Source of the DNA: an uncultured Gemmatimonadales bacterium
GTDB taxonomy: Bacteria > Gemmatimonadota > Gemmatimonadetes > Gemmatimonadales > Gemmatimonadaceae
Length of the DNA: 64,000 nt
NCBI GenBank assembly: GCA_963793305.1
Contig: CAWBZV010000004.1
Coordinates: 1 to 64,000 of the forward strand
Direction: 5' to 3'
Below the pieces are notes generated by a model that saw nothing but the letters and a program-made list of their open reading frames with translations, did no database searches and had not been told where the DNA came from. Positions 22,471 to 44,423 of this stretch are shown piece after piece. Position 1 is the first letter of the stretch, and every line of letters begins with the position of its first letter. The position numbers and the translations under genes were made by a program.

Positions 22471-22511
22471 TTGCCCCTCCTGGGCTCGAACCAGGACTCT
22501 CCGATCCAGAG
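22471..22511 (-). repeat. tRNA-Gln 3' fragment copy 1 (att core), 1-nt deletion
   Basis: Matches 44351-44392 except for one missing T. Confidence 0.95.
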
Positions 22512-22653
22512 CCAAGCTTGGGAGGCTCTGAACTCCGGCAACTTGCAGTCAGCAAGTTCGCGTCGTCGGCTGCCGGAGTCAATCTGGTCGTTTGCCGGAT
22601 CTTGCAGGGGCTAACTCTCACACACGCGTCGGGAGCATTCGGCAGATCCCGCA

Positions 22654-23181
22654 CTAATCGTGGCGGCCCAGACACGCGACTGGTGCCGCGCGTACCGCAG
22701 CGCCGGGCGCAATGTCGGGTGTGTCAAACCATTCCCACGCACGCCCGACGAGCGTATCCGGGTGCACCGACAGCCGAAGCGCATAGCCATGAAACCAGTG
22801 AACGGCCACATCGACCTCGATCGAGTCGCTTCCCGCCATGCTCCAATGAGCATGCGTTCTAGCAAACGACGAGAGATCACCACCTTTCATGTCCCAGTCC
22901 GGCGGATCCCATCGCCACGGCCGCCGCACGACAGAGTCCCGTAACTGAATGAACTGGAGCCGATTCCCCTGATCGTCTTTGGCGAAGCCTCCTGGCGAAA
23001 ATGTTAGACGATAGCAGCGCGTCGCATGAGCGAATCGAGTTGGCACGGGTGCGCCGTCCGGCATCGGCGCACGGCTTGCTTCTGTGGCCTCCGGCACGAC
23101 GACCAGGTACACAACGATCAACAGTCCGATCAGCGTGGACAGTATCGGGGCGATGCGCACGTCACCCTCCAGGCAGAGCAT
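22654..23181 (-). CDS. Hypothetical membrane-anchored protein
   Basis: ORF with N-terminal hydrophobic helix. Confidence 0.5.
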   Translation of the reverse strand: MLCLEGDVRIAPILSTLIGLLIVVYLVVVPEATEASRAPMPDGAPVPTRFAHATRCYRLTFSPGGFAKDDQGNRLQFIQLRDSVVRRPWRWDPPDWDMKGGDLSSFARTHAHWSMAGSDSIEVDVAVHWFHGYALRLSVHPDTLVGRAWEWFDTPDIAPGAAVRAAPVACLGRHD

Positions 23182-23298
23182 CTTCCACGCTGATGCCTTC
23201 GCATTGCGGCGTCATGAGACGAGCATGAAGTGTCGGTGACATCCGCCACCCGACGCAGTGGATCAGCAGTGGACACGAGGTTATGCTGCACGCAGACC

Positions 23299-23775
23299 AT
23301 GAACCCGCCTGGCCACCGGTGTTTGTCGAACGACGCGACGGGTTCCTGCGCGACCTGCGGCCAAACATTCACGTACAACCTAGTCCACAACGGCTTTAAC
23401 GAGTCCGCGTACGCGTATTGTGCGACGTGCGGATTGACCGCGATCCTAAGCGGGTGGGAGCCCGACATTCCAGTGGCCGCCGGATATCGCGGACATCAGC
23501 GCATCACCGCGAGTGTCGAACCGTATCTGGCCGATTGTCCGTGCGGTGGCCGTTTCACGGCGACAGCGGGCCCACGATGTCCGCATTGTCGAGCCGAATT
23601 GTCTGCCGAAGCCGTCCGCGAATTCATTGAGCGCAATGCGCCAGGCACGCCAATGGGATGGCGCTGGCAGCTCAACTGGTCCGGTCTGTACGCGATAGTC
23701 GTGGACGGTCGTGTTGTCTGGGACAACTGGCGTCATCGCCATGGCGGCGGCGATACGACGCCCGAGCGCATCTGA
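23299..23775 (+). CDS. Hypothetical Cys-rich (Zn-ribbon-like) protein
   Basis: CATC, CATC, CPC, CPHC motifs. Confidence 0.6.
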   Translation: MNPPGHRCLSNDATGSCATCGQTFTYNLVHNGFNESAYAYCATCGLTAILSGWEPDIPVAAGYRGHQRITASVEPYLADCPCGGRFTATAGPRCPHCRAELSAEAVREFIERNAPGTPMGWRWQLNWSGLYAIVVDGRVVWDNWRHRHGGGDTTPERI

Positions 23776-24023
23776 CTTGCGTCGCGTTGAGTCCGGCCGA
23801 GTTCATTACCACTGGTCCAGCCGGCACGTGTGATGCGCAGTCACGCATCCATCCTCTGGCGACCTTGTTATCAGAATCGCTCGATTCGCAATTACGGCAG
23901 TGGCCCGTGTCGGCGTCCCCACGACTTGAGCTGGCCTGTGCCTGCCGGCCAGGCTTCTATGGCTCGAAGGAGGTAGCCGGACGCGGCATCCTGCTCGTTC
24001 AGTGCCAGGCTCGCGACACTAGT

Positions 24024-24482
24024 TCAATAAAGCGATCTCTGGACGACCAGAAATGATCTCGCAGTAGACAGATCGGAATATGCATCGAGCCAAGCCTGTT
24101 CCTCACCGACGCACGCGTGCTGCACCTCGCTCACAGTCCTGGTGTGGTCTTCATCTGCCTTGACCTCCCACCAACGGTCATTCCCACCAGGAAGCAGATG
24201 ACCAATGCGGCATCGAACGAGACAGTCCGATTCGAGAGGCTTCTCGGTCAGTCGCCCGATGCCCCCGAGATCAGCAAGGACCGAGAAGTACACACCTAGG
24301 TTGACCGTGAATCGCCCTGACGAGCCCTCGTTCCACGAACTCGCCTGCACGTTAACGACCTGCACGCAGCGCTCGAGCGACCGGCGGAATGTGCGTTTGT
24401 CTTTCTTGTAGCCGTGTTGGCGCAACGGCTCCTTGAGCGCGTCACGGGTAATGCTGTCTATCAGCAGCCCCGCTGAGCTCAT
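24024..24482 (-). CDS. DUF4304-like protein
   Basis: LRQHGYKKDKRTFRR...VVNVQASSWN...FTVNLGVYF. Confidence 0.65.
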   Translation of the reverse strand: MSSAGLLIDSITRDALKEPLRQHGYKKDKRTFRRSLERCVQVVNVQASSWNEGSSGRFTVNLGVYFSVLADLGGIGRLTEKPLESDCLVRCRIGHLLPGGNDRWWEVKADEDHTRTVSEVQHACVGEEQAWLDAYSDLSTARSFLVVQRSLY

Positions 24483-24883
24483 GCGTGCGTCGGCCACACT
24501 CGGGCGAGCACACCGGCTAGGGCTCCGATAATAGCTCCGGTGGCGGTAACCAGCACCACTGTTATCGCGAGGACGCCGATGCTCGGGATCCCATTCGGGG
24601 CACGGCCCGGGCCAATCGCCCAAGACACCGCCCAGCCAATGGTCGCTTCTACAACGGCGATGATGGCGACTCCCAGTGACGCCGCACCGACGTTCACTCG
24701 CCGGCCGATCATGAACCCGAACGCCGCATAGATCAGCCAAGAGCCGACGGTCGCATAACTGTAACGGAATCCGATCGTTCGAGACGCGACCGAAGCCAGC
24801 AGGTCAAAGACGACTATGGCTAGCGCGCCCCACGAGACCAGTCTCCACACCACGTTCGGCACCCAGTTCTTGAGAAGAAGCAA
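24479..24883 (-). CDS. Small 4-TM membrane protein
   Basis: Hydrophobic ORF; 4-bp overlap with the downstream DUF4304 gene. Confidence 0.6.
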   Translation of the reverse strand: MLLLKNWVPNVVWRLVSWGALAIVVFDLLASVASRTIGFRYSYATVGSWLIYAAFGFMIGRRVNVGAASLGVAIIAVVEATIGWAVSWAIGPGRAPNGIPSIGVLAITVVLVTATGAIIGALAGVLARVWPTHA

Positions 24884-25011
24884 TCATGCGCGCCGGAGCT
24901 GTCGACCGCCAGGCCGTCTCGCGCCTCCCTGCTACCGTTTAGCGAAGCCGCGAAGGCCAGCCAGCTGTACTGCGGAGCAGTTCCGCCTCCTGTTACGGGA
25001 AGGGTCAACGA

Positions 25012-25523
25012 ATGCGCGTCAGTGACCTGTACGACCTGCTGGCAGCCTACCGCCTTCGTTGCCTTAGCCGGGAGCGTGCCACCTTTCGTTCGTTCAATCT
25101 CTGTCGCGCCGCGGTGCTATCGTATCTGCGGTTCGCCTTCCGCGACCAGCGAGCGCTATGGCGCGAGATCACTGAGCAGATTCGGCCGGCAGCGCTGTCG
25201 GACCGCATCCACGTTGCGGGATCGAAGACACCAGCCGCCGACCGCGTGATCCCACGCATCGATTGCCCTGTCAAGCACAGCATCCATGCACGCTCATGCG
25301 CACAAGTCATAGCGCGCGTGACAAACCGACAGCACGAGCCACGCGACTTGCGGCGCAGCTACGCCCGTCTGCTAGCGGACGCCGGCATTCCCGAGTATCG
25401 TCAGGCGGCTTATATGGCCACGGCGCCCGAACAATGACCTTGCACTACCAAGTTGGGGACATTGAGCCGTTCCTCCAACGGGATGCAGCGCAACTCCGCG
25501 AGTGGATAGCCCAGAGTGAATGA
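25012..25523 (+). pseudogene. Tyrosine recombinase/integrase remnant (internal deletion, frameshift near 25417)
   Basis: GSKT...RVIP, PRDLRRSYA, YM[G]HG..MTLHY when the two frames are joined; no first catalytic Arg box. Confidence 0.7.
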
Positions 25524-25615
25524 CACTGCGTCGTTGACACCTCTAGCACGCTTGGGTTGGCGGACCGAACCATCTTGGGCTGTTCGGGCATCGGCCTGGG
25601 GGGCCGTGGCGTTCG

Positions 25616-25969
25616 GTGTCTTTCAGTTTCTCGCGCTGCCGCTCGTCATCTCCACATGACGCAACGGGCTGGCGATTTCACCCCGAGACACTAGCAACGT
25701 TGAGCCTCACGGGAGCCCTCGCGTACGTCGCGTTTCGCAGATTGACTATTGGCCTCGTCGCGCTCGGGCTTTGGGGAGTCTGGCGGTTATTCGAGCTCAC
25801 CACCTTCATCGTACGTGTACTGACCGGTCACGTGGGTTCTGATGGTCCAGCGGCATTTGCGGCATTCCTCGTTTTCGATATTCCCTCGGTATTCTGGCTC
25901 ATTGGTGCCATTGCCGCGATCAAGACTTGGCGGCGACGAGCAACCGGCGGAGCGATTCGCGACGGGTAG
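25616..25969 (+). CDS. Small membrane protein, start uncertain
   Basis: Several hydrophobic helices. Confidence 0.45.
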   Translation: MSFSFSRCRSSSPHDATGWRFHPETLATLSLTGALAYVAFRRLTIGLVALGLWGVWRLFELTTFIVRVLTGHVGSDGPAAFAAFLVFDIPSVFWLIGAIAAIKTWRRRATGGAIRDG

Positions 25970-25994
25970 GGTCCTTCGTTGAGGTTATCGTCCG

Positions 25995-26531
25995 ATGCAC
26001 TTTCTCAGTCCGAGCGAATGCCGCGACTGGTGTGGGTCTCGGCGCATTCCGTTCGATGCGCATGGCACCCCGCTTCCGCCGAATCGGGAGCGGTTCTACG
26101 TGAGGGCCCCGATACCGAGGGACTTTACGCAACTACTGCCGTTCTGTCGCACGTTCGAGGGGTTGCTCCAACCTCGCCGGGCGTGTCTACTGTGGATCAC
26201 GGAATCCGATATTTGGGATTCGAACACGAATTGGCATCTCTACTATCGATTGCGGCAATCGTATGGAGATCAGCGCCAACTGTACCACGCGCCAGGCCAT
26301 CTCTTTCTCAACGACGAGGCGCCTGACATGGTCAGCTTCGTCCAACTCGCCGCGTTGTTTGGATTCGATGCCCATCTGATCCCCGACGTGACGGGCTACG
26401 GTCGGGCATTCGTCTCACATGACGAGTTCGTCGAATTCGCAGCGAACGAGGCGAATCCAGAGCTCGTGACGGAATTCGCGGCTACTGTCGGCGGATCAGT
26501 CATCACTGGACCGCTGCCTCCATTGAATTAG
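25995..26531 (+). CDS. Hypothetical protein
   Basis: 178-aa globular-looking ORF (LLWITESDIW, APGHLF, FVSHDEF). Confidence 0.65.
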   Translation: MHFLSPSECRDWCGSRRIPFDAHGTPLPPNRERFYVRAPIPRDFTQLLPFCRTFEGLLQPRRACLLWITESDIWDSNTNWHLYYRLRQSYGDQRQLYHAPGHLFLNDEAPDMVSFVQLAALFGFDAHLIPDVTGYGRAFVSHDEFVEFAANEANPELVTEFAATVGGSVITGPLPPLN

Positions 26532-26637
26532 CACGAACCTGCTGCCGTGCGGCCTCTCAGAGACTGAGGCCGATGCTTCGACGCCATGGGAAGTACGGTC
26601 GTGTGGCGATGTATCGTCATGAAGTGACATCACGATC

Positions 26638-27384
26638 TCAGAATAGGGAGACGAAGTACCAGTGCGGCAGCTGCGGTGAGATCTCCCGAATATCAGAGTG
26701 GAGGAGGACAGAAGTCGGCGGTGTGTCGCCGGCGACGTACACGTAACCCGAGGCATGGCCGAGCAGGCCGCGGAACGTGTAGAACAGCACGACGAGCGAA
26801 TCGCCGTAGCCACGTACCGCGATCGACCCATCGGATGACAGGCTGCGCCAACGCATCGGGAGCGCCACATCGCCGCCGCGGCCGGCGATCTCCCCCTTTT
26901 GGACCAGCGTGACAACTCGGTCGAACCCGTCACGGCGCGCGTACCAGACGGCCTGGAGGTTGATCGCGGTCCATGGCACGAGGAACCACAACGCATACCC
27001 GGCCGCGGACGCGACAACCGGCGCCAGCGCGCGCCATCGAACCGTTCGCCACAGGCGAACACCAACGGCAACAGCGAACCCTGCGCCAGCAGCCGCGCCG
27101 ATCCCGGAGACCTCCTCGATTCTGGCCGCGAGGAAGACCGTTCCCCAATCGATGATCTGCCATTGGAACGCCGTCGCCGTGAGTATCGCACCCATCAGCG
27201 CGATGACGCCGGTCGTGGCACTGCGCACTGTGCCTCGAGTCGAGCCGACGATCACGCCAGCTGTTGCCGCCAAAGCAAGGGCGGCGACGATATGCGCGTC
27301 GTCCATCACATGCGACCCCAGCGCCAAAAGCGCCGCGGCGGCGCATAGCGCCAGGGTCCGACTCATAACGACGAAGTACTTCAC
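26638..27384 (-). CDS. Hypothetical membrane protein
   Basis: Multiple TM segments and a soluble C-terminus. Confidence 0.6.
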   Translation of the reverse strand: MKYFVVMSRTLALCAAAALLALGSHVMDDAHIVAALALAATAGVIVGSTRGTVRSATTGVIALMGAILTATAFQWQIIDWGTVFLAARIEEVSGIGAAAGAGFAVAVGVRLWRTVRWRALAPVVASAAGYALWFLVPWTAINLQAVWYARRDGFDRVVTLVQKGEIAGRGGDVALPMRWRSLSSDGSIAVRGYGDSLVVLFYTFRGLLGHASGYVYVAGDTPPTSVLLHSDIREISPQLPHWYFVSLF

Positions 27385-27486
27385 GACACAAAGTATACAC
27401 TGGCATTATTCGGCTTGCCAGGTCATGAGCATCTTCGCCGCTGGCATTCCACGCCGACGCGCCAATTTACATCTCAGTTGCCAAGA

Positions 27487-28245
27487 CTAGGATTCCAGCA
27501 GCGCCCGTACCTTGTGAGCGTATCTGCGGCTCGACGTGACCACCATTCCTTTTGCCAGTACGATGTCGTACACCCCATCGAACATGGGACGAATCTCGCT
27601 GATGCAGGCACCGTTCACGATGGCCGATTTCCGCACGCGGATGAAGTGGTGTGGTGCCAGCTTCTCTTCCAGGTGTGCCAAGGTTTTCCGCAACAGGTGA
27701 CTGCCGTTTGCGGTGTGTATGCAGGCATAGTTTCCGGTGGCTTCGATCCACAAAACGTTGGAAACGGGAACAAAGAAAATCCGCTTCTTGTCATTCACCA
27801 CAAAGCGTTCCAACGGGCGGAGGCTGCGGAGGGATTGGAGCAGTGGTTCGAGACCTCGATTTGTCTCCCTGCGCTGTTCGAGGATTTCGCGTGCGTGCAT
27901 CAGCGCCTTGGCAAATCGCTCCTTATCATACGGCTTCAAGAGATAGTCAACGGCGTGCACTTCGAATGCACGAATGGCGTGCGCATCGTGAGCCGTGACA
28001 AAGATATATACGGGAGCGGGGCCGTTCACTGGCTCCACATTCTCGATGACTCCAAAACCATCCAGATCAGGCATCTGCACATCGAGAAACACGACGTTGG
28101 GATGAAGTTCGTTGATCTGCTCCACCGCGCTGATGCCGTTCGCCGCCTCGCCGATCACTTCAATGCCGTCGTGTTCGGCCAGATAGCGACGGATGCCGCG
28201 CCGGCCGATCGGTTCGTCATCGACGATGAGGACTCGCGTCGTCAT
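27487..28245 (-). CDS. LytTR-family response regulator
   Basis: VLIVDDEP, FLDVQMP, AFEVHAVDYLLKP, FIRVRKSAIVN. Confidence 0.95.
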   Translation of the reverse strand: MTTRVLIVDDEPIGRRGIRRYLAEHDGIEVIGEAANGISAVEQINELHPNVVFLDVQMPDLDGFGVIENVEPVNGPAPVYIFVTAHDAHAIRAFEVHAVDYLLKPYDKERFAKALMHAREILEQRRETNRGLEPLLQSLRSLRPLERFVVNDKKRIFFVPVSNVLWIEATGNYACIHTANGSHLLRKTLAHLEEKLAPHHFIRVRKSAIVNGACISEIRPMFDGVYDIVLAKGMVVTSSRRYAHKVRALLES

Positions 28246-29332
28246 GAGAACTCCTCAGTGGAAAGGTAATGATGGCCTCGCAGCCTCGACCGTCGCCCCC
28301 GGTCAGTGCCAGCGAGGACTCGTCCCCGTAGAGCTGTTTCAAGCGTGACTGGACATTGGTGAGTCCGACGCCGAATCGCAGGCGCGATCCCGGTGCCGGA
28401 CCCGGGCCATCATCGCGGACGCACAGCCAAACGCTGCCGTGGTGGAGTTTGGCCGATATCTCTATCCGACCTGCGGCGGAGTCGACGCTGATGCCGTGTT
28501 TGATGGCATTCTCAACCAGTGGCTGAAGCGCCAGACTCGGTACATAGACGTCGAGAAGGTCAGGTGGTACGTGCATGTGAACTTTCAAGCGGTCATGAAA
28601 GCGAGTCAGTTCGATCTCCAGATACTTGCCGACGAACTCGAGCTCGCTCCGCAAGGTGATCTCGTTCTCCCGCCGTTCGAGGGCCATGCGCAGCAAGTCG
28701 CCGAGGCTGACGAGCAGATGGCCCGCAGCATTGACGTCCTCCTGCATCAGGATTCCAATGGTATGAAGACTGTTGAACAAAAAGTGCGGATGTAATTGGC
28801 TCTTCAGGTTCTCCAGTTCGGCATGGGAGAGCTGCGTCTGCAGTTGCGCCGCTCGAGTTTGGCGCTCCATAGCAGCCTGGTAAAAGTGGATCGACTGATA
28901 CAGTCCCACGACTACCCAGTACGTCAGTATGCCAGTGACGCTCAACGTTAAAACACTGACTGCGAACGTCGGGAGAAGGCGCAGCACCACAGGATCAGTG
29001 AGGCGAAGCACTGACAGCACAAGTCCGCGGCTCAGCAGGTACTCGGTGACAGATGCCAGGGGAGCCATCACGAGCGACGTGACTGTGTGGATCGCTATAT
29101 GAGGTACAATCCTCGGCCCAGTCAACGGGAACCGTTTGGCCATCCCAATCACAAGCGGGGTGTACGCCGCCCATACGTACCAGTAGAGAAGTTCGACCGC
29201 GCTCACGAGCGCCCAGCTGACGTGGAGACCCCCTACCGTCAGCAGCGCGATCGTGCGTACAGCAAACAACAGCCCTACAATGGTCCACCCACACAGGACC
29301 AAAATCCATTTCATCCGTCCTACACCTGGCAT
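28217..29332 (-). CDS. LytS/YehU-family sensor histidine kinase
   Basis: [37 protein letters not shown]. Confidence 0.9.
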   Translation of the reverse strand: MPGVGRMKWILVLCGWTIVGLLFAVRTIALLTVGGLHVSWALVSAVELLYWYVWAAYTPLVIGMAKRFPLTGPRIVPHIAIHTVTSLVMAPLASVTEYLLSRGLVLSVLRLTDPVVLRLLPTFAVSVLTLSVTGILTYWVVVGLYQSIHFYQAAMERQTRAAQLQTQLSHAELENLKSQLHPHFLFNSLHTIGILMQEDVNAAGHLLVSLGDLLRMALERRENEITLRSELEFVGKYLEIELTRFHDRLKVHMHVPPDLLDVYVPSLALQPLVENAIKHGISVDSAAGRIEISAKLHHGSVWLCVRDDGPGPAPGSRLRFGVGLTNVQSRLKQLYGDESSLALTGGDGRGCEAIITFPLRSSHDDASPHRR

Positions 29333-29558
29333 GGCCTGTAACACTGTGGGTGTCGACCCTCCGGCACGGATCATAGCTGAAGCTTCCGTGGCAACAGTAC
29401 TTGACGGCCAACTCCGACCGCTTGTCTCACAGCGGACACCGCATGTCACTTTTCCTGCAAAGACTGGTTTGTCGCGATATATACTCCGCGAGCAGGAGCA
29501 TTGCCAAGACGTATCGGGGTTGGAACGACGCTGTAGCCCACAGGGCTTACAAGAGGAG

Positions 29559-30101
29559 ATGAAGCGAATGAAATCGACATTGGCGACTTACATGAATCTG
29601 CGCGGCCGCATGCTGGTCTCCACGGTGCTGGCGGTCATCGCAACGGCTACAGCCGGGGCGCAAAGTGCTCCTGCCGTCAGTCCGGCAGAAGCGCGAAAAG
29701 CGATTCAACTCGGTTACGCCGAGTGGACGAAAGCGCGAGTCGCGCTGGACATGAACACGATCGAGCGGATGCTGGCTCCGGATTTCTACTTCCAAACTCC
29801 CGAAAAAACGGTGACGCGGAAGGAGTTTATCGAAAGCGTGCCTTCACTCAGGATAACGCGATTTGACGGCAGCGTGCTCACGGTCGAACCCAAAGGCAAC
29901 GACTGGTCGGTAGTCGTATTTGAGAAGGGAGAGGTCGAGACCAAGGACAAGGATGGCAAACCGAGCAAGGTCTACATCGTGCTGGTTGCACGGGATGGCT
30001 GGAGAAAATCGAACGACAATCAATGGACCCTCCTATCCTCCGAGCCGCTGGATCAGCAACCGATGGCAAAGAACGAGATGCCGGCGATCGCAAACTGGTA
30101 A
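29559..30101 (+). CDS. Secreted NTF2-like (DUF4440-like) protein
   Basis: SD GAGGAG, signal-like segment, ERMLAPDF...TRKEFI. Confidence 0.65.
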   Translation: MKRMKSTLATYMNLRGRMLVSTVLAVIATATAGAQSAPAVSPAEARKAIQLGYAEWTKARVALDMNTIERMLAPDFYFQTPEKTVTRKEFIESVPSLRITRFDGSVLTVEPKGNDWSVVVFEKGEVETKDKDGKPSKVYIVLVARDGWRKSNDNQWTLLSSEPLDQQPMAKNEMPAIANW

Positions 30102-30225
30102 CCAGATGAGATCCTGTGATATTCGCTGACTGTACGCGCGTCACGCTCCGTCAGCTCGGCCGCGAGCTTCGGGGCGCCGGCGCGGGAAGAAGCATCGCCG
30201 TGCGTCCAACGGAGCGGCTAATCGC

Positions 30226-32745
30226 ATGACTGAGCATTTGTTCTCCGATCTGCGGTACGCGGTTCGCATCCTGCTGAGATCTCCGGGTTTTTCGTTCATT
30301 GTCATCGCCACCCTGGCGCTCGGCATCGGAGCCACAACGGCGATCTATAGCGTCATCGACGCCACGCTGCTGCACCCGTTGCCGTACCCACATCCCACCG
30401 AGCTCGTTCACGTCGAGGACGACCTTCGAGGTACGGGCGAGACGGACGTGGGCATCTCCATCCCCGAGTTCCGAGACCTCGAGAGCTCCGGGATCTTCCA
30501 GTCCGTGGCGCTTGCCAGCCCCGGCGCAAGCACGAACCTCACCGGCGGTCAGCAGCCCGAGCGTCTCAGCTTCAAGATTGTTACGCCAAATTACTTCTCG
30601 GCCCTCGGTGTCAGCGCCCAGTTGGGTCATGCATTCGATCCGCGCGATGCCACGCCCGGCTTCAACCTGCAGGTCGTGATCAGCGATGGGCTGTGGCGGA
30701 GGGAATTCGGCGCCGATCCAAACGTCATCGGGAAGACGCTGCGCCTGGACAACGACCCGTATCAGATCATCGGCGTCATGCCGCGCGGGTTTCGCGATCA
30801 GGGCGCGACCAGCGACGACCAGAATGTGGAGATGTGGTTGGGAGCGGGCTTTGCCGGCGAGCCGTTTCCGCCGCCGCAGCGCGCAATCCGTCTGGTAGGA
30901 GTCACCGCGCGCTTGAACACCGGTCTCTCGACGACGGCGGCGCAGGGGCGCCTCGATGCGCTAGTGGCATCGCTGAAAAACCAATATCCGGCCGACTATC
31001 CAACCAAGGTTGCCTGGACCGTGCAGTTGATTCCGCTCAGCGAGAGCGTGGTCGCCAACGTGCACCAATCGCTCATTCTCTTGTTCGGCGCGGTCGGCCT
31101 GGTCCTCCTCATCAGTTGTGTCAATGTCGCCAATCTGCTGCTGGCCAGGGCCAGCGCGCGTGGTCGTGAGGTCTCGGTTCGCCTGGCCTTGGGCGCGCAG
31201 CGCACGCGCCTCATCCGAGCGCTTCTGACCGAGATTCTCCTGCTGTTCCTGCTCGGCGGAATCGCCGGGTTTGCCATTCTCTTCGGCGGCCAGCGTGTCC
31301 TGCTCCGACTGGTCCCGGCGAGTCTCCCGCACTTGAACGACATCGGTGTGGGGTGGGGCGTGCTGGGATTCGCGGTGGTTGTCTCAGTCGCCGCCGGAAC
31401 GATCTGCGGGCTGGCGCCCGCCTGGCTCATGAGCCGTGCCGATTTGATCGGTACGCTTCGGCAGGAAAGCCGCGGCTCCAAGGGGTCCAAGGAACGCTCG
31501 CGCGCCCGGCAGATGCTGGTGATCGGTGAATTGGCGCTCTCTTTGGTGCTCATGGTGGCCGCGAGCTTGCTTTTGCACAGTTTTTGGGATCTGTTCAACG
31601 TGCGGCCCGGGTTCAATCCGAGCCGCGTGATGGTCGTGCAGAGTTGGGTGCCTCGGCCGAACGATTCCACGGCGGATCCCTATCACACCGCCACGCAGGA
31701 GGCGGTCTTGCTGCGCGAGATTCTGCGTCGCAGCCGAAATCTACCGGGCGTAGAAGAAGTGGCCATCGGCAGCGCGGGCGCCCTTCCGCTGGACCACAGC
31801 CGGGGCGATCTGGTGCAGCTGGTAATGATTCGCGAAGGCGTCGCGACGAAGGCCGGCGAGACTCCCGTGATCGGTGGCGCCCTCGTTTCGCCCGAATACT
31901 TCCATCTGTTGGGCATGTCGCCATTACGCGGACGTGGGTTCACCGATCAAGACCTCGAGCAGACGCCCGGGATTGCGGTCATCAATGAGGCCGCGGCTCG
32001 CACCTACTGGCCAGGCCAGGATCCGGTGGGCAAACGTGTCCACCTTCAGGACGGTGTGACCGTGAACTGGTCTGGCGCCTGGACCACGATCGTTGGTGTG
32101 ACTGGGGATGCTCGCACGGAATCCTTGGGCGAAGCGGCCGCTCCACGGATCTACCTCAGCCTGTACCAGCATGCCTTCCAAGCCAGCGTGAACCAGCCGG
32201 GCCTCCAAGGCCTGGCCGTCTTTCTTCGCGGACAACTCGATCCCCGCGCCATCCCCGCACAAGTTCGCCAGCAGATTCAGTCCGTCGACCCGGAACTGCC
32301 CGTTTTCGGTGCAGAGACCATGGATGACGTCGTCTCCGCCTCGCTCTCGGTCAGGCGATTCTCGATGGAAATGGTGGCCTTCTTTGCGGCCACGGCCTTG
32401 CTGCTCGCCGGACTTGGCATCTACGGAACCATCTCGTTTGTGGTGAACGAACAACGACATGAGTTCGCCATTCGCCTCGCGCTGGGGGGGCAGCGACGCG
32501 ATATCCTCACGATGGTCCTACGGCGGGGACTCAGTCTGGCCGCCGCTGGCGCCGCGATAGGCTTGGTTGGCGCGCTCATCGTCTCCCGCCTCATGGCCGG
32601 ACTCCTCTACGGTGTGTCGCCGACCGATCTCCCCACCTTCGCTGCCGTCACCCTCGCACTGACTGCTGTCGCGCTGGCCGCCAGTTATGTCCCGGCGCTC
32701 CGCGCCATGCACCTCGATCCCATCACCGTTCTCCAATCGGAATGA
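30226..32745 (+). CDS. ADOP-family duplicated ABC permease (MacB_PCD/FtsX x2)
   Basis: DLRYAVRILLRSPGF, ISCVNVANLLLARA, EFAIRLALG. Confidence 0.9.
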   Translation: MTEHLFSDLRYAVRILLRSPGFSFIVIATLALGIGATTAIYSVIDATLLHPLPYPHPTELVHVEDDLRGTGETDVGISIPEFRDLESSGIFQSVALASPGASTNLTGGQQPERLSFKIVTPNYFSALGVSAQLGHAFDPRDATPGFNLQVVISDGLWRREFGADPNVIGKTLRLDNDPYQIIGVMPRGFRDQGATSDDQNVEMWLGAGFAGEPFPPPQRAIRLVGVTARLNTGLSTTAAQGRLDALVASLKNQYPADYPTKVAWTVQLIPLSESVVANVHQSLILLFGAVGLVLLISCVNVANLLLARASARGREVSVRLALGAQRTRLIRALLTEILLLFLLGGIAGFAILFGGQRVLLRLVPASLPHLNDIGVGWGVLGFAVVVSVAAGTICGLAPAWLMSRADLIGTLRQESRGSKGSKERSRARQMLVIGELALSLVLMVAASLLLHSFWDLFNVRPGFNPSRVMVVQSWVPRPNDSTADPYHTATQEAVLLREILRRSRNLPGVEEVAIGSAGALPLDHSRGDLVQLVMIREGVATKAGETPVIGGALVSPEYFHLLGMSPLRGRGFTDQDLEQTPGIAVINEAAARTYWPGQDPVGKRVHLQDGVTVNWSGAWTTIVGVTGDARTESLGEAAAPRIYLSLYQHAFQASVNQPGLQGLAVFLRGQLDPRAIPAQVRQQIQSVDPELPVFGAETMDDVVSASLSVRRFSMEMVAFFAATALLLAGLGIYGTISFVVNEQRHEFAIRLALGGQRRDILTMVLRRGLSLAAAGAAIGLVGALIVSRLMAGLLYGVSPTDLPTFAAVTLALTAVALAASYVPALRAMHLDPITVLQSE

Positions 32746-32937
32746 ACTCAACGATAGGCGCCCGGCACCGGACGCCTGTCGTGTTCCCGCCGATAAGAAC
32801 TCAGGCTTACGAGCACCCGGACGGGGATGGGGCCAAGATGGTCACGGATGCGCGCGCTCTGCTGGGATCGTAGGACGCATCGTTCTTCGCGGCCACCCCT
32901 TGCATGCCGCGAACGCTTGCGTTAAATACTGAGCCAT

Positions 32938-33796: not shown

Positions 33797-33897
33797 CAGC
33801 GACGTGGATCTCGCGGTCGGTCGTCCGATAGTCCCGGCTCACACTGGCCGGGGCTATCGGGTCCTACGGTACGTCGTACGTCCCTATCAAAACGGAC

Positions 33898-36381: not shown

Positions 36382-36390
36382 TTATCTGAG

Positions 36391-36432
36391 TTGCCCCTCC
36401 TGGGCTCGAACCAGGACTCTTCTGATCCAGAG
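36391..36432 (-). repeat. tRNA-Gln 3' fragment copy 2 (att core), 1 substitution
   Basis: 41/42 match to 44351-44392. Confidence 0.95.
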
Positions 36433-38243
36433 CCACGCTGGGAAGGGCTTGAACTCCGGTAACTTGCAGTCAAACCGCAAGTTCGCGTCGTCGGATGCCG
36501 GAGTCAACGAACTATTCTGCCGGATCGTGCCGGGTCTAGCTCACACAGGAACTCACACACGCTGTGGGTTGTTCAGGCACGAGGCGACCATGTGATCCAG
36601 CGCGGATAGCGTGCCGCCGGATGACCACCCCGAGCCGAATACCGAGGTTTGGAAGCTATCAACTAGTTCAGCAGAAACTTTTTGACAAACATCACAGTGG
36701 AATAGAAACGATAGTCGCTATTCGATGTCTTGCTGATACCATGCCCTTCGCCGGCCATTACGAAATACCAGACTGGGATTCCGTTTTTCCGCACGGCATT
36801 CACAATCTGGTCGGATTCGGCACGCGGAACGATCGGATCGTTCTCGCCCTGAATGACGAACAGCGGTTTCGTGATTGAACTCGCGTTATTCACCGGCGCG
36901 AGTCTTTCGAGGAATTCACGTATCTGTGGATCGCGCTCGTCTCCATACTCTACGCGACGAAGATCGCGGCGATACTCGGCCGTACGCTCCAGAAACGTGA
37001 CCAGATTCGAAGGACCATAGATATCTACGGCGGCGCGGATGCGCTCTGGATACTTCATGGCCGTGACCAACGCCACGTTGCCGCCATAGCTGGCGCCGGT
37101 CACCATCACCCGGTCAGGATCGAGATCTGGTTGCGTCCTAATCCAATCGAGAAGCGCACCGATATCCTTGTAGGCGTTCTCTCGGAGCAGCCCGTTGTCC
37201 AAGGTCAGAAACGTCTTTCCGAAGCCCGATGAGCCACGGATGTTCGGGAACAGCAACGCAACTCCGAGCTCATTCATGTAGTAGTTCTGCTCGCCGAGGA
37301 AGTATGGCTGAAATTGGTCCTCTGGCCCGCCATGAATGTCGATGATGACGGGACGCTTTCCCGTGAATTTGGCTGGCGGGTGATACAGGATGCCCGACAG
37401 AGCCAGGCCGTCAAAACTCTTCCAGTGAATCACGCTTGGCTCGACGAACGCCGAGGTATTGAGGCCGCCAAGCTCGCTAAAGGTCCACCGCCCGACTCGG
37501 CCTGTCTTAGTGTCGAGCGAATAAGCGTCATCCGGCCAACGCCACGAGTCCAAGCTGAAGCCGAGGTAGCGACTGTTTCGGTGCCAATGGAGATCGATCA
37601 CATAGCCGGGCGGGAAGCCAGGAAGCGGTTTTTCACGCCCGGAGATGGCGTCGAGCACATGGAGGATGGTATTGCCATCCTCATCGCTGGTCACGGCCAT
37701 CTGCTTACCATCCGGAGACAGTTGCGCCTCAAAAATGTCCCAGGGGATGTGCTCAGTCAGGAACGTATAGCGATGTGTAGAGATGTCGATCCGCGCCAGT
37801 CGCCGGAACTCGGAATCGCGGTCGGTGATGGCAAAGATGCTCTTGCCGTCCTTGCTGAAGTAGGAGGCCCCATACGCGACCGCGGTTGGCCCCGACTTTG
37901 GCGTGATGAGCATTTTCTCGCCGGTAGAGACATTAATGAGCCAGAGGTAGCTCTCGTTGGCGGAAATCTCTTGAAGGGTAAGGATCTTCGAATCATCGGG
38001 TGACCAGTCGAGAGGACTCCATCCTCCACCCTCTAGCTTCACCAGCAGCCGGTTGGTCGTTGGATCGAGCGGATTTTCGACATAGAAGTCGACATCGGTA
38101 CCATTTCGCCGGTTCGAACCGTAGGCGATTCGGTCGCCACGGTTGGACCAGACGCCGGGTCCATTCTTCGACTTGCCATCGGTGAGCAGCGTGACCCGAC
38201 CGTCCACGAAGTCGTAGCGGTAGTTCTGTGTCGTGCGTGGGAG
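36433..38243. mobile_element. Island C (~1.8 kb) between att copies 2 and 3
   Basis: Bounded by tRNA-Gln fragments. Confidence 0.75.
36663..38240 (-). pseudogene. S9 family serine peptidase, 5'-truncated at the att site
   Basis: IHGGPE, GASYGG, QGENDP, EGHG; the ORF N-terminus runs into att sequence and has no signal peptide. Confidence 0.8.
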
Positions 38244-38285
38244 TTGCCCCTCCTGGGCTCGAACCAGGACTCTCCTGATCCAGAG
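38244..38285 (-). repeat. tRNA-Gln 3' fragment copy 3 (att core)
   Basis: 42/42 match to 44351-44392. Confidence 0.95.
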
Positions 38286-38805
38286 CCGAGATTGGAGTGC
38301 CCCGAACTCCGGCAAGTTGCACTCAAACCACAAGTTGCGTGTCTCGGTTTGCCGGAGTTCCCGCACCACATGCCGGTGTTTGCCGGCGCAACGTACACAG
38401 AAACGTACACACTGAAGGCCTAAGCGCCGGATGCCACCATAGCGCCATTATTGTCTGAACTACGCCGCGAGCCGTGACTCCAGCCAGCGGTTGAGTGATT
38501 GCTGGCTCTGGTGGCGCGCGAGGCACAGAGTCCGGATCAGCGCCGTCGCGTACTGGTTCCCGCAGAGCTCTCTGGCCCGGGCCACCCAAGACTCGCCGAG
38601 GGACCCTTACGGCGCGTGAAGACGAGGACGGCGCCATCGCCTTTTGTGCCCAATGATGCGAAAATGCCCACTCGGTGCGGGTGGGCAAGGGACCGGCGGC
38701 TGCCAGCACACCCCGCGGGACCGCGTAGATCTGGGTCTTGTCGTGCGCGCCGCAGCGGCACGTATCGCCGGCCGGCAGCGCGCTTGTTCGCGATGCGGCC
38801 GCCGG

Positions 38806-40714
38806 CTACTTGGCCGGCGTTTTCAGGTACTTGTCGAACCACCCCAGCATACGCGGCCCCAGGTCTCGCGCGTGCGCCGGGATCCGGAAGCCATGTCCCT
38901 CGTCGGCGTACACGACGAGCTCGAGACGTCACGCCATTGCGCTGAAGCCCGCGCCAGAACTCGAACGACTGCGGCGCGGGACACTCGGCATCGCGCTCAC
39001 CGACGATGACCAAGGTCGGCGTACGCGCCTGTCGGATGAAGTTGATCGGCGAGCTCTTGGCGTACACCGCCGGGTCATCGTAGACCGTGGCGCCGAAATA
39101 TGGCTGCATCCACTCGTTAATGCCGTTCTCGCCCGCGTAACTCAACCAGTCGGAGAGGCCAGCAACGGCCACGACGGCTTTGAAGCGCTTGGTCTGGGTG
39201 ACCGCCCACATTCCCATGAATCCGCCGTAGCTCGCTCCCCAGAGTCCTATGCGCATGCTGTCGACGGAGTATCGGTGCACTATCGTGTCGATACCCGCCA
39301 TAATGTCGCGGAGATCGCCATATCCGAAGTCCTTCACATTGGCTTTCGCGAAGGCTTCGCCCTGCCCGTAGCTCCCGCGCGGATTCGGCATGAACACGAA
39401 GTAGCCGGCGCGGGACATCTGAGAGGTCGGATTGCGCTCCGACATCCATTCGGCCGACTGCGCCGCCGCCGGACCGCCGTGAACCTGCACGATCATGGGA
39501 TACCTGGTTCCCGGGCGGAAATCCGCCGGGAATAGCAGCCACCCCTGGACCGTGAATGCGTCGCTCTTCCACTCGACACTCTCCGCCCGGCCGTACGCTG
39601 GCGTGACCGTCGCGTTGACGTGGGTCACCGGCTCGAGCTTCTCTGGCGGCCCGGCCCAGACCTCCGGCGGCTCGCCGAAGGACTCACGCACCACGGCTAC
39701 CGCCTGGCCATCACGAGAGGCCGAGAGTGAAGGCACGAACCCTCCGCTGGTCACATGCGCATTCACGCGGGCGAGGATGCGCGAGGCGCCGGTGCGCGTA
39801 TCGAGGGTGGAGAATATGGACGCACCGCTCGCCCAAGCCGAGACAATGAGCTGATGCGGCGCACTCGTCCACGCCAGATCTGACGGGCTAGTCGTCGTCG
39901 TCGGAGTCAAATCTTTCGGCGTGCCGCCGGTGGCCGGTACGACCCAAACGTCGCCGCCGGTCGACCCCTGATCGCTCATGATACCGCCAATGTAGGCGAT
40001 CTCCGAGCCGTCCGGGGACCAGCGTGGCACAGCGATTTGCGTGGCCGGCTGCGCGATCTCTGTCAGCGCCCCCGAGTCGGCCGGCACCGCGTAGAGGCGT
40101 GCAGTCCACCAGTTGTTATTCCCCGAACCGTTCGCGGCGCTGACCACGAGTCGCCGCGAGTCGGGCGACCAATCGTACTCGTAAACATAGAGGTCCGCCG
40201 GAGTCACGACGCGGAGACGGCCTGCCGATAGATCGATGACGGCCAGATGCTGGCGGTCGACTATGTCGCCGATCACGCCGGTGTCGCGCGGCGTGGCCTC
40301 CGTCGGGTCGCCCGTGATCTCCTCCGGCCGCGCGTAGAGCACAGCCACGCTCTTGCCATCCGGCGCGAACCGGATGCCCTGGATGGAGCCGGGGATGGTG
40401 GCAACGACGCGCGACTTACCATCCGCGACGGTCGCCAACGTCACCGTGCCATTCGCGCTCAGAAAGGCGAGAGCGCGACTGTCCGGAGACCAGGCCACTT
40501 CGGACGCGTCGCCGAAGGTGCGAACGGCGGTGTGGGATGACTTGCGGTCGACGACAACGAGGGCCGGGGCGGCGCCGGCGGTGTCCGCCGGACTCGGGCC
40601 GATCCAGGCGACCAGTTGCCCGTCGGGTGAGATCGACACGTTGGAGAATCGGCGCGCCGCGTGAGACGGCGGCGGAAGCAGCGCAATGGCGGCGCAAAGA
40701 TGAAGAATAGTCAT
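38806..40714 (-). CDS. S9 family peptidase (acylaminoacyl/dipeptidyl peptidase-like; frameshift near 38925)
   Basis: Signal peptide, WSPD repeats, VHGGP, GASYGG, GERD, YADEGHGF in the shifted frame. Confidence 0.9.
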
Positions 40715-40811
40715 GTCCGGGGCACCAATGTACCGGAGCCCTGTTGAATCGATCCAATGAATTGTCTACACTGCGCTCATGGCGAAATTCGATGACGGGG
40801 CTGTGGGACCC

Positions 40812-41705
40812 ATGCATATCGAGGTGCGGGATCTGCGCCTGATTGTCGCCATCGCGCACTCCGGCAGCGTCACGGCGGCCGCCGACGCGCTTCATCTCAC
40901 GCAGTCGACGCTGAGCCATCATCTCGCCGATTTGGAACGGCGCATCGGCAGCCGGCTCTTCCATCGAACCGGTCACCGCCTGTCCATCACACCTCTCGGG
41001 AACCGGTTCCGAGCGAATGCTGAACCGCTGCTGGACGACGTCCGCGCATTCGAGCAAGCGCTCCGGAACAGGATCGACCAGCCCGTGGGAGTGGTGCGGT
41101 TCGCCACGGAATGCAATACAACGTATCCATGGTTTGGCCGGCTCGCCATCGCATTCCGACGCGAGTGGCCACAGGTGGAATTGACGCTGGTAACCGCGGC
41201 CACGGCGCAGCCGCTGGTGGAGCTGGAGCGCGGAACAGTCGACATTGCGATCACCACGCGTCGGGTTCGCCAGCGGCACTTCAAGGTTGCCACCCTGTTT
41301 TCGGACGAGCTCGTCGCGCTCGTTCCCCCGGACCATGCCTGGGGACGCAAGAAACGCGTCGAGCTTGAGGCATTTCGCGACGTGCATCTCTTGACCTTTG
41401 CAAGAGATCCCTTGCATTCCGACTTCGTCCGCGACGTGTTAGTGCCAGCGGGAGTCCTGCCGACCAAAACCTCAGGGACACAACAGACTGAGAGTCTCTT
41501 CGAGTTTTCGAAAGCCGGGATCGGAGTTGCGGTCGTGACGCGGTGGATTGCGAAGCATGTGCTCGAAAGCGGTGAGTTGGTCGCCGTGCGAATTGGCCGC
41601 GCTGGGCTCCATCGCACCTGGCGCGCCGTGTGGCTGCCGAGTTATCCGACTCCGGAATGGTTGGAAACCTTCGCCCGGCTTCTCTGTCTCGAGAATCGGC
41701 AGTAA
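40812..41705 (+). CDS. LysR-family regulator (MetR-like)
   Basis: GSVTAAADALHLTQSTLSHHLADLE, TECNTTYPW. Confidence 0.9.
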   Translation: MHIEVRDLRLIVAIAHSGSVTAAADALHLTQSTLSHHLADLERRIGSRLFHRTGHRLSITPLGNRFRANAEPLLDDVRAFEQALRNRIDQPVGVVRFATECNTTYPWFGRLAIAFRREWPQVELTLVTAATAQPLVELERGTVDIAITTRRVRQRHFKVATLFSDELVALVPPDHAWGRKKRVELEAFRDVHLLTFARDPLHSDFVRDVLVPAGVLPTKTSGTQQTESLFEFSKAGIGVAVVTRWIAKHVLESGELVAVRIGRAGLHRTWRAVWLPSYPTPEWLETFARLLCLENRQ

Positions 41706-41926
41706 GACGCGGCGCTCGGACACCGCACAAAGACCGGTCAGCCTCGCTCACACCGATCGCGCCCACCGGCGCACCGAATGCAACGAGGGCGGACCAGACT
41801 CGCACCGCGTTTGACGCCATGCGGTCGATCCGGATGTCGAGATCACCCGTAGCACGGGGAGTGCCGCGTTCCAGAAAAAGTATAGCTCACGCAGTTGGGT
41901 CAGGCGTGAACCACAACAAAAACAAC

Positions 41927-41958
41927 GGCGCCGCCTGAGACTAAGCCCAAGCAGCGCC
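41927..41958 (-). terminator. Hairpin downstream of tRNA-Gln fragment copy 4
   Basis: Minus strand GGCGCTGCTTGGG-CTTAGT-CTCAGGCGGCGCC then GTTGTTTTTG. Confidence 0.65.
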
Positions 41959-41968
41959 ATACGTTGAG

Positions 41969-42012
41969 TTGCCCCTCCTGGGCTCGAACCAGGACTCTCC
42001 TGATCCAGAGTC
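41969..42012 (-). repeat. tRNA-Gln 3' fragment copy 4 (att core)
   Basis: 44/44 match to 44351-44394. Confidence 0.95.
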
Positions 42013-42188
42013 CGACCAAGGGGACGCTCGCACCGGGTAACCAGTCCGGTATGGATGCCAATCGAGCATCGGCGCCCACTCGCGCTGTCGGAATCGATCG
42101 CGAATGTCCGGAGAAACTACGCCGAAACTACAGCCCGCGCAGAGCTCCGCGGTGTGAGCAACTGCGAGATACCGGCCTTCGCCCCGAA

Positions 42189-42485
42189 TCAGACCTCTTC
42201 GAGCGCTTCAAGAGAGTACTGGACCACGGTTTCGATGATGCCGCGAATCCCAGTCACACAGCCCTTGAATTCGATCGATTGCAGTACCGGCTGGCCATAT
42301 GAACGGAGCACGTCGCTGATGAGCGCGTGAATGAATGACTGTGTGGCAAGTGAAACACCGGTAAAGTCGAGGACAACGCGCTCGCGACGCTTCAGCGCGG
42401 GCACGATCTTCGTTTTTCGGACACGAGCAGCCGCGTCCTTGTCCTCAGCGAAATCCCCCGTGACACCACTAATCTTGATTATCAT
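42189..42485 (-). CDS. STAS-like DUF4325 protein
   Basis: VVLDFTGVSLATQSFIHALI motif. Confidence 0.8.
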   Translation of the reverse strand: MIIKISGVTGDFAEDKDAAARVRKTKIVPALKRRERVVLDFTGVSLATQSFIHALISDVLRSYGQPVLQSIEFKGCVTGIRGIIETVVQYSLEALEEV

Positions 42486-43453
42486 TTTGTGAACCTGATC
42501 TGTTGACGATACCTTTTTTTCTTCCCCGCCTTCACGTCAATCGAGTAAGCAGAGCGAATTGCCTCAAGAAGGTCTGAAAACTCCGCACCGGACTCGACTC
42601 GGATGTCGATCCCAACCAGAGTCCCCGGCCATTCAGGCGAAATGACGAAACGATGCTTGTCGTCACGAGGGTCCGCATGAAGTTCGGGTTCAGAAGCGCT
42701 CGGACGTTTTAATAGTTTGAACAAACTCTTACCGCTATACAGAACGAAATAGTTCCGCGACAGCGCCGCGATACTCTTTGTGAAGAACAGACCGGCACCA
42801 GCGTTGAACTCATTGCCGCCAAGACGGCTGGTGACACCTGTGACACCGGGTTGAAGAGCCAAACGGATGGCCGCCTCATCGCTGCGTACAGTGTGGCTCT
42901 GTTGCATCGATTGCCTGATCCCGACACCCGCGTCTGCTATGCCAATCGAAATGCGGTCAGTTTTCTTGAAGTACTGAGCGCAAACGAACGCTCCAACCGG
43001 CGAACTTGAATGTTCAAGAGCATTGCGTACCATTTCGCTGAAAACGTAGCGGATGGGATCGGCAACAGCTTTGGGCGCGTGCAGAAGGGGAACTAGATTC
43101 GTAATCGCGTCTCGAAGGTCCCGCGTATTCCGAATCTGAGTCAGCGGGATAAAGCGACCGCTCTCGTCGTGTTCGGTGATCGTCCGCGCAGGATCAACCT
43201 TCAGATGCTTGAACAATCCCATCCGAATCAAGTAAGTCAACGATCCAATTTGGCTTACGGCTCCGCGAGTACGCGCTCGTCGATGCGCGGCTAGGGCACC
43301 GGCGCAGGCAGTCATAGCCAAAACAGCCGGATGGACAGATACCCACTTCTTATGCATGCCAAACACGAGTTCATCGGCGGGCATTGGCTCATATGTCGCC
43401 AAGAACCCGTCGATGTTCTGCAAGTGGGCGCTGTTCGGCAGAAATATCTTCAC
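42482..43453 (-). CDS. Histidine kinase-like (GHKL) ATPase without HisKA domain
   Basis: SEMVRNALEHS, IADAGVGI, NAGAGLF, WPGTLV. Confidence 0.8.
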   Translation of the reverse strand: MKIFLPNSAHLQNIDGFLATYEPMPADELVFGMHKKWVSVHPAVLAMTACAGALAAHRRARTRGAVSQIGSLTYLIRMGLFKHLKVDPARTITEHDESGRFIPLTQIRNTRDLRDAITNLVPLLHAPKAVADPIRYVFSEMVRNALEHSSSPVGAFVCAQYFKKTDRISIGIADAGVGIRQSMQQSHTVRSDEAAIRLALQPGVTGVTSRLGGNEFNAGAGLFFTKSIAALSRNYFVLYSGKSLFKLLKRPSASEPELHADPRDDKHRFVISPEWPGTLVGIDIRVESGAEFSDLLEAIRSAYSIDVKAGKKKRYRQQIRFTK

Positions 43454-43586
43454 GGTAGAAAGAAATCCTGTCTCATTATCTCGAACCTTCGGGCCGCGTC
43501 CCTGAAAGATATCGGGTGGCAATAGATAATCCGCGAATAGGCTGCGCCCGGCCCTGGGGGCGGAGACCAAAGCCAAGGTCGAGCCG

Positions 43587-43790
43587 TTGAAAGGCGGACT
43601 CTGGCACCCGTACCGCCGCAAGTGGGCAACCGAACGTCGACATCTACAGACCGTCGACGTGATGAAAGCAGGAGGGTGGACCGACCGAACGACGATGGAG
43701 ACATGCTATCAGCAAGCAACCGAAGCCGGCGTGATCGCCGCAATGTCGTCCCCAGTCAAGCTCCGGGATCACGGGATCAGCCCCACGTAG
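43587..43790 (+). pseudogene. C-terminal fragment of a tyrosine integrase
   Basis: WHPYRRKWAT (HxxR), AGGW, CYQQ catalytic-end motifs; upstream portion absent. Confidence 0.7.
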
Positions 43791-43836
43791 GTAGGTGAAA
43801 CGGCGGCCCGGTTGGGCTCTGGACCGGTGGTGTTCC

Positions 43837-44331
43837 ATGCACCATATCATTAGGAATGTTGAGGCGAATCGAGCGGTGACTATTCGGTACAGACTGACGC
43901 TGCCAAGAGTACTGATACTCGGAGCCGCACTGACCATCGTGGTTGTTGCGCTGGTCGATGGGTGGCGAGCAGCAGCTCGAGTCACCGCTTGGGTTTGCGC
44001 GCTCGCCTTAATGGCGACGGCATTCGCGATGGTCGCGATATTGGCGCGCGCGAAGCAGCGTAAGGGTGCTTACCCTCCGGGCGGGATTACGGCCACGACG
44101 TTCCTGGTCTGGGGATGCATGTTCGCTACAATGGTGCTGGTGGAAGTCGGCCGTGCAGATGGTTTCCCATTCGTTGTACCTGTGTCTGCCGGCCTCGGTT
44201 GCTTTGCGGTGGGCTTCGGGCTTCGCGGGATGGCCATCGCACGGCGTCGCGCCAGGGAGCGGAAAGAGATCAGAAACTCCGTCGACACTCCGACAGCGGG
44301 AGCGGAAAAGCAAAGGCCCCGCACCGACTAA
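43837..44331 (+). CDS. Small 4-TM membrane protein
   Basis: Hydrophobic ORF; start uncertain. Confidence 0.55.
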   Translation: MHHIIRNVEANRAVTIRYRLTLPRVLILGAALTIVVVALVDGWRAAARVTAWVCALALMATAFAMVAILARAKQRKGAYPPGGITATTFLVWGCMFATMVLVEVGRADGFPFVVPVSAGLGCFAVGFGLRGMAIARRRARERKEIRNSVDTPTAGAEKQRPRTD

Positions 44332-44346
44332 GCGATGCAGGGCCTT
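44313..44346 (-). terminator. Terminator downstream of the intact tRNA-Gln
   Basis: Minus strand AAGGCCCTGCA...CTTAG...TGCGGGGCCTT then TGCTTTT. Confidence 0.65.
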
Positions 44347-44350
44347 CGAG

Positions 44351-44423
44351 TTGCCCCTCCTGGGCTCGAACCAGGACTCTCCTGATCCAGAGTCAGGCGT
44401 GTTGCCAGTTACACCAAGGGGCA
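44351..44423 (-). tRNA. tRNA-Gln (CTG), CCA not encoded
   Basis: TGCCCCT/AGGGGCA acceptor stem, anticodon arm CCTGA-CTCTGGA-TCAGG, T-arm CCTGG-TTCGAGC-CCAGG. Confidence 0.95.

Follow-up and report, generated by a model that had tools for sequence, protein, structure and literature searches.

The window, a 64,000-nucleotide stretch of contig C4 from the genome of an uncultured Gemmatimonadales bacterium, carries an intact tRNA-Gln(CTG) gene (44350..44423, minus strand, identified with ARAGORN) followed by a tandem array of small islands, each bounded by a direct copy of the tRNA 3' half. The anticodon loop of the intact gene forms the crossover region of an attB/attL attachment (att) site. BLASTN of the tRNA against the genome located four copies, all on the minus strand and numbered here outward from the tRNA: copy 1 (41968..42012; tRNA positions 30-74, perfect, 45/45), copy 2 (38243..38285; positions 32-74, perfect, 43/43), copy 3 (36390..36432; one G>A change) and copy 4 (22471..22512; a 1-nt deletion). 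They are spaced by 2382, 3725, 1853 and about 13920 nt. Three of them start at the anticodon loop and the one nearest the tRNA begins 2 nt earlier; the probability that a single exact 42-mer would occur by chance in the window is about 7e-21.

These searches confirmed what a first inspection of the letters by themselves (the sequence-only reading) had described, namely a tRNA-Gln with four direct 3'-half copies that delimit four units, the two proximal copies being perfect and each of the distal ones having one change. That reading ended the array at copy 4, whereas a fifth, degenerate copy (19343..19371, minus strand) forms its distal boundary. The score of copy 5 is modest, being matched by 1/300 shuffles and 5/343 genome windows, and synteny with the congener G062 picks up again within 10 nt of it. 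The case for an age gradient from the two changes in copies 3 and 4 is weak. Intact tRNA-Gln genes have C27/G43 in 27/35 cases and T27/A43 in 8/35; the G>A of copy 3 is therefore a natural allele and weak evidence of age. The deletion in copy 4 could be a read error, because the assembly shows other single-base differences from all four sequencing runs compared.

The junctions share one layout: a P arm, the anticodon loop, the tRNA 3' half, a terminator and then, if kept, paired P' repeats. In relatives where the layout is intact, the integrase gene runs on the opposite strand and has its end at P'. Lambda-type att sites are expected to be organised in this way. Core repeats are retained at all window junctions, and the units are inserted site-specifically at a shared target between flanking att repeats, as in tandem accretion and in cis-mobilizable elements (CIMEs). 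The arms before copies 2-4 are homologous (82-84% by BLASTN; H type). At a distance of 18-19 nt from the core they carry an inverted repeat, and they hold an imperfect hairpin that might have a role like that of lambda sib/tI. The arm before copy 1 is of a different type (A). The array boundaries consist of tRNA halves with arm-type repeats, and no attC or IntI features were seen there, although no attC model was run.

The two arms are unequally preserved. The P arm is kept in 4/4 units of the window and the paired P' arm in 1/4 (unit 1); in four whole arrays, two of which (G048 and G152) have two units in common, the corresponding counts are 24/26 and 6/26. The att arms had been called well kept from the start, and this holds for the P side and fails for the P' side.

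Unit 1 brought a terminator-like hairpin (44311..44348, minus strand; z -4.3, 0/200 shuffles) next to the tRNA and has an A-type P' arm with paired arm-type repeats spaced 11 bp (44271..44293, minus strand); arms of this type are also found ahead of intact integrases. Its cargo consists of an open reading frame (ORF) of 178 aa with no Pfam family (43795..44331, plus strand) and of an HATPase-like gene, below the Pfam cut-off, with a DUF4325 STAS-like gene (42189..43621, minus strand). The unit closes with an A-type P arm (42013..42135, minus strand; paired repeats at 42111-42134). Unit 2 (38286..41967) contains a terminator, a single degenerate P' site, a LysR gene (40779-41705, plus strand), an S9 peptidase gene (38537-40714, minus strand) and an H-type P arm with its hairpin at 38304-38361 and arm repeats at 38391-38413. 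A chromosomal paralogue of this peptidase, 76% identical, lies at G000:C2:534325-536191.

Unit 3 (36433..38242, minus strand) starts with a left-end stump of 15 nt, joined to the interior of a peptidase gene. The resulting 5'-truncated S9 peptidase (36663-38228, minus strand) is followed by an H-type P arm (repeats 36540-36560). The same left end is whole in G062, and a contig of sequencing run X1 that crosses unit 3 carries 622 additional letters there. Unit 4 (22513..36389) is composite, its left end cut back to the stop codon of an ABC permease. It holds two ABC permeases, an ArsR-like and AHSA1 pair, a LytTR two-component pair, small hypothetical genes and DUF4304, and has an H-type P arm (22513-22630). 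A probable unit 5 (19372..22470) comprises a terminator, a single P' site, a PIN toxin gene with a partner ORF and two inverted paralogues (19456-20064 and 20724-21383; 72-76% DNA identity, no Pfam family), which have additional relatives in both congeners. The Pfam scan of the 41 window ORFs assigned the cargo to LysR, S9 peptidases, ABC permeases, the LytTR pair, DUF4325, DUF4304 and PIN. The units are multi-gene, with genes on both strands and terminators, and do not consist of the single promoterless co-oriented genes that make up integron cassettes.

The same scan gave no phage, conjugation or replication families, and the PF00589 profile, run against the whole genome, returned 8 matches with none on contig C4. 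In the window no intact integrase occurs together with structural, conjugation or replication genes, as it would in an intact prophage, integrative and conjugative element or satellite. The array had been called integrase-less, which is correct for intact genes but not for remnants, since two broken integrases sit inside it. In unit 1 we found the 3' stub of a family-A tyrosine integrase, convergent with the tRNA (43530..43790, plus strand; profile positions 337-409 of about 414). It corresponds to the last 73 integrase codons (43560-43778, plus strand). Its identity is 53% to the intact integrase found at tRNA-Pro in this genome, and 47% over 70 aa (E 9e-19) to an intact one that adjoins a tRNA-Gln att copy in G002. 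In unit 4 a gene of a second tyrosine-integrase family has left a remnant with an internal deletion and a frameshift (25018..25520, plus strand). The remnant has no Pfam match of its own and was recognised by tblastn (match 25018-25419, E 5e-12) to a 374-aa recombinase-like ORF that adjoins tRNA-Gln in G081.

No resident cognate helper was detected with the family A/H, B and C integrase profiles in this 92%-complete genome. Its two intact family-A integrases adjoin tRNA-Pro and tRNA-Ala and are associated with other arms. Neither was a resident intI found beside an attI; contig C4 carries only stubs of the lambda-type families.

The intact cognate integrase that the sequence-only reading proposed to look for was thus not found in the window's own genome. 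In relatives, intact integrases adjoin the tRNA-Gln gene or its att copy in G204, G220 and G002. The parent elements, at least 8 kb long, are islands with an integrase, an excisionase-like gene and defence cargo, or else primase-bearing satellite-like islands. The latter were found only in G035 and G039 (L049, L052); they are 8-15 kb long, encode a primase-polymerase, lie at tRNA-Gln and have their integrase distally. In G259, a 14.3-kb element has an internally deleted integrase of the H clade, an HTH_17 gene, restriction-modification cargo and an H-like P arm. Relatives of the H-clade integrase P0124 occur in 17/301 genomes; 3/20 loci adjoin tRNA-Gln, two of these with full-length genes. Integrase stubs located after H-type P' arms have full-length counterparts in the databases, with up to 85% identity over 68 aa. 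As far as the contigs reach, the parent elements contain no phage or conjugation families. No phage parent was found in the viral collection, which gave only 2 distant loci for the H-clade integrase and 2 loci with the arm pattern that lacked the tRNA half.

The stubs in units 1 and 4, together with the parents in G002, G204, G220 and G259, show derivation of the array from integrase-bearing elements; units 2 and 3 are tied to the parents by arm type only. The parents carry defence genes as cargo; that of the array is to a large extent similar to common chromosomal families (kinases, permeases, peptidases). A 650-bp gene common to many units of relatives was tried as a candidate recombinase and proved to encode a Ser/Thr kinase domain.

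Similar tRNA-Gln arrays are common in the Gemmatimonadales. Two or more tRNA-half matches were found in about 30 of 150 genomes of the family (a count that takes in G134), and arrays reach 16 copies, over 63 kb, in G151; G010 has 7 copies. The metagenome scan comprised at least 134 stretches, and the 72 long-flank metagenome loci among the matches listed held 0 full-length integrases and 6 stubs; in one arm-pattern search, 32/50 loci lacked a tRNA-Gln half and were discarded as fortuitous. The survey yielded 83 non-redundant complete units (87 before 4 duplicates were removed) with a median length of 2.7 kb. Units of up to 7.5 kb had a full-length integrase in 0/73 cases and a 3' stub in 14/73. 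All 5 full-length integrases were in tRNA-adjacent units of 7.7-37 kb. No integrase trace of any kind was present in 13/23 tRNA-adjacent units. Downstream 3' copies occur for at least 14 tRNA genes of the window's genome, so that the tRNA-Gln array is the longest case of a general habit.

A separate feature of the att copies is the occurrence of T-loop insertions, 20-45 nt tandem mini-hairpins present in 32/214 att copies and 0/35 intact tRNAs, with the same sequence in many copies; presumably they are REP-like. They accumulate distally, for example in G151:C5:2468359-2520606 (L109-L112).

Comparison of arrays bears out the lambda-type crossover at the anticodon loop and the polar accretion that had been read from the anatomy. 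In G151 the T-loop insertions occur in 1/8 proximal copies and in 8/8 distal copies. The collection of tRNA-Gln loci across the Gemmatimonadota, proposed beforehand as a check, also revealed cassette-like turnover: in 2/2 congeners (G062 and G120) the first units differ from that of the window, and near-identical integrase-less units occur with different neighbours. The order of unit 2 (97% identity) and of an 8.9-kb part of unit 4 (95%) is conserved in G062, where the intervening att copies have been lost; upstream of the tRNA, identity between the window and G062 is 88%. One kb of unit 4 is present at 96.7% in L138. Pieces of unit 2 that are about 99% identical were found in three further soil runs from three studies, where the upstream gene is barely covered. 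A 2.6-kb integrase-less unit, 99.2-99.5% identical, is the third in G151 and the first in L124 and occurs also in L148, and the next unit is different in each. Accretion, decay and turnover are all shown.

The arms are in part mosaic. When pairs of related units were compared, the arm differed more than the adjacent cargo in 7/13 pairs with a different successor unit, versus 0/6 pairs with the same successor. In G048 and G152, which share two units that both differ by 0.5%, the two arrays differ at 1 position in 130 nt at the first junction, and at 9 positions at the second, all of these 9 within the last 53 nt. Such crossovers within the arm are indicative of homologous recombination or conversion between the repeats, and not only of exchange at the 7-bp overlap.

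Mis-assembly is an unlikely source of the repeats. Contigs of run X1 span units 2 and 3 and break at the repeats, and the junction that leads into unit 2 is present in G062 with 97% identity. Unit 1 was uncovered in all four runs (X1, X3, X6 and X12) and hence rests on this assembly; the result suggests that it may be absent there. Two single extra bases relative to the runs, at 38923 (against 4/4 runs, garbling the end of the unit 2 peptidase) and at 41704, are possibly read errors. A joint at the tRNA in X1 (44402>38235), with 32 letters on its short side, is uninterpretable and was not taken as a circle.

These results are best accounted for by polar accretion with decay to CIMEs, piggy-back transport on incoming integrase-bearing elements and reshuffling by recombination, a combination that we consider probable (roughly 0.6). 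The anatomy and the comparison of genomes show that elements with lambda-type tyrosine integrases of several families insert serially at the anticodon loop of tRNA-Gln(CTG), and that each newcomer restores the tRNA and displaces older elements outward. The islands lose the integrase by deletion, often leaving a 3' stub and often losing the P' arm as well, and become CIMEs. An intact newcomer could then excise with its own P' arm and the far P arm of its passenger, so that the block moves; later the helper may excise alone and leave the passenger beside the tRNA. P arms would have been kept, and P' arms not, because such mobility uses the P arm only. By the logic of lambda att sites a lone circle would need both arms and a passenger excised together with an upstream helper only its P arm, and so the asymmetry fits transport as a passenger. 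Recombination, probably of the RecA type, between repeats of about 175 bp (P arm plus tRNA half) would in addition delete or swap whole units, as the mosaic arms indicate.

Several observations weigh against this explanation. In none of the arrays found does an intact cognate helper immediately precede passengers of its own arm type: the contigs of G204 and G220 end before any passengers, and in G062, G120 and G035 the intact helpers work with different arms. Neither a helper-passenger circle nor an excised form was seen in the runs, which were examined as contigs. No inversion of unit order between genomes was found, so that loss alone could give the patterns of shared units. The excess of differences in the arm is lacking in 6/13 different-successor pairs; counted by independent groups it holds in 5/11, and one unit is common to 3 of the 7 positive pairs. 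Finally, sampling by P-arm pattern and short contigs favours small units with kept P arms, and the P' arms were scored by regular expression.

The strongest alternative, though an unlikely one, is that autonomous islands decayed in place and are now immobile, the shared units being due to descent, ordinary recombination and repeat-mediated deletion. The integrase stubs and deletion scars would be expected in that case. In G062, moreover, the cargo of units 2 and 4 has outlasted the att copies, and the conserved order and the mosaic arms fit deletion by homologous recombination. Yet 13/23 of the tRNA-adjacent, and hence youngest, units have no integrase trace, and units are more alike than the core DNA of the same genomes (97% versus 88% for the window and G062, 99.2% versus 93% for G048 and G152). 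The one-sided retention of P arms would also go unexplained. The graveyard of decayed islands that the sequence-only reading offered as its alternative is borne out in part: the units are decayed islands, but turnover continues, with movement in cis and homologous recombination as its most likely routes.

That reading itself favoured an integron-like system mobilised in trans, in which minimal cassettes excise as single circles and re-insert by means of an integrase supplied elsewhere. Small units (median 2.7 kb), arrays of up to 16 copies, the same unit at rank 1 and at rank 3 and the two arms of window unit 1 are all compatible with it. We nevertheless regard it as quite improbable and find neither of its elements supported. 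The paired P' arm that a stand-alone circle needs is absent in 20/26 units, breakpoints often lie within the arm and not at the 7-bp overlap, stubs and deletion scars are present, and neither an IntI/attC feature nor a resident cognate integrase was detected in the 92%-complete genome. Still weaker is an exchange free of recombinase, in which the repeats are homology anchors only and units move by double crossover of incoming DNA: mosaic arms, an identity between G048 and G152 that starts at the tRNA and stops 53 nt before the core inside the arm, and DprA in the genome speak for it, but left anchors as short as 43-74 bp, failure to find ComEC (PF03772) in the 92%-complete genome, and conserved arm-type repeats with fixed core spacing, which suggest protein recognition, make it very unlikely.

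Integrons, too, are polar arrays of small cargo units with the newest first and with toxin-antitoxin and regulatory cargo, served by a resident IntI and by attI/attC sites. The tRNA-Gln arrays resemble them in polarity, unit size and toxin-antitoxin and regulatory cargo, and differ in that the sites are lambda-type att junctions and that promoters, terminators and both gene directions occur within units.

The array is of a known kind. In the scheme of CIME accretion, integration genes are lost and att sites kept, a newcomer enters at the target end and tandems can be co-mobile (PMC5704250). The window array agrees with this in its integrase-less att-flanked units and in newcomers at the tRNA end, but in the Gemmatimonadota no conjugation module was seen in the parents, and the units are far smaller, more numerous and mostly left with the distal arm only. 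Downstream of ssrA in Dehalococcoides, several islands likewise follow one stable-RNA gene, separated by 3' repeats; 15 lack the integration module and were proposed to be cis-mobilizable, and inter-island recombination has been described (PMC3146451). Those islands use a serine recombinase and a 20-bp repeat, with a six-gene integration module in 16 of them, whereas the integrases of the tRNA-Gln arrays are of the tyrosine type and hardly ever intact, and the repeat is 43 bp long and accompanied by arms. Tycheposon islands of Prochlorococcus grow in a polar manner from a tRNA, with partial tRNA copies and fragmented integrases, and newcomers push older elements outward as they do here (10.1101/2020.12.28.424599); unlike them, the tRNA-Gln units have no integrases and keep long arms. 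The additive flexible islands of Alteromonas, tRNA hotspots with tRNA-repeat-marked cassettes that are near-identical across species (PMC4898812), are similar, and for the tRNA-Gln arrays the att anatomy and the parent integrases are resolved in addition. Recombination in tandem arrays is documented for SXT elements (PMC5812530). A literature search (subscription papers and supplements being outside its scope) found nothing on such arrays in the Gemmatimonadota. They are a miniaturised, one-armed variant, in which the arm asymmetry and the mosaic arms are the new points.

The mobility of most islands remains elusive (10.64898/2026.01.13.699239), and for the question of how islands without an integrase arrive, persist and spread these arrays offer many natural replicates with named parent integrases. 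If transport as a passenger is correct, the far arm of the passenger is needed and the near arm is dispensable. They also illustrate a way in which single regulatory and metabolic genes may be gathered by a soil phylum that is abundant and mostly uncultured. A more far-reaching idea, which we consider doubtful, is that of a lineage-wide Gemmatimonadales pool of one-arm cassettes of 1-7 kb at tRNA-Gln. The P arm would be selected for pick-up by passing cognate integrase elements and delivery to other species, or because an integrase acts in trans on sites with only a P arm, giving an integron-like capture economy of lambda att sites with no resident recombinase.

Related structures were noted at other loci. 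The array of G010 (C137, L041-L042), with its 7 tRNA-Gln copies, has a different conserved upstream site of about 30 bp and no long arm; its cargo includes toxin-antitoxin genes and IS21, and no integrase was found in it. The tRNA-Ile array of the window's own genome (G000), at G000:C2:464597-481873, contains two near-identical att copies of the tRNA-Pro type, with arms, far from the tRNA-Pro gene. The first 44 nt (5' end) of tRNA-Ser(CGA) are present twice on C14, at G000:C14:225588 and 231031, and represent an island boundary of the 5'-fragment type; the integrase beside tRNA-Ser(CGA) on C6 has an internal TGA. On another contig, a lone 28-nt 3' end of tRNA-Gln at G000:C18:15434-15461 is followed by left-end-like sequence.

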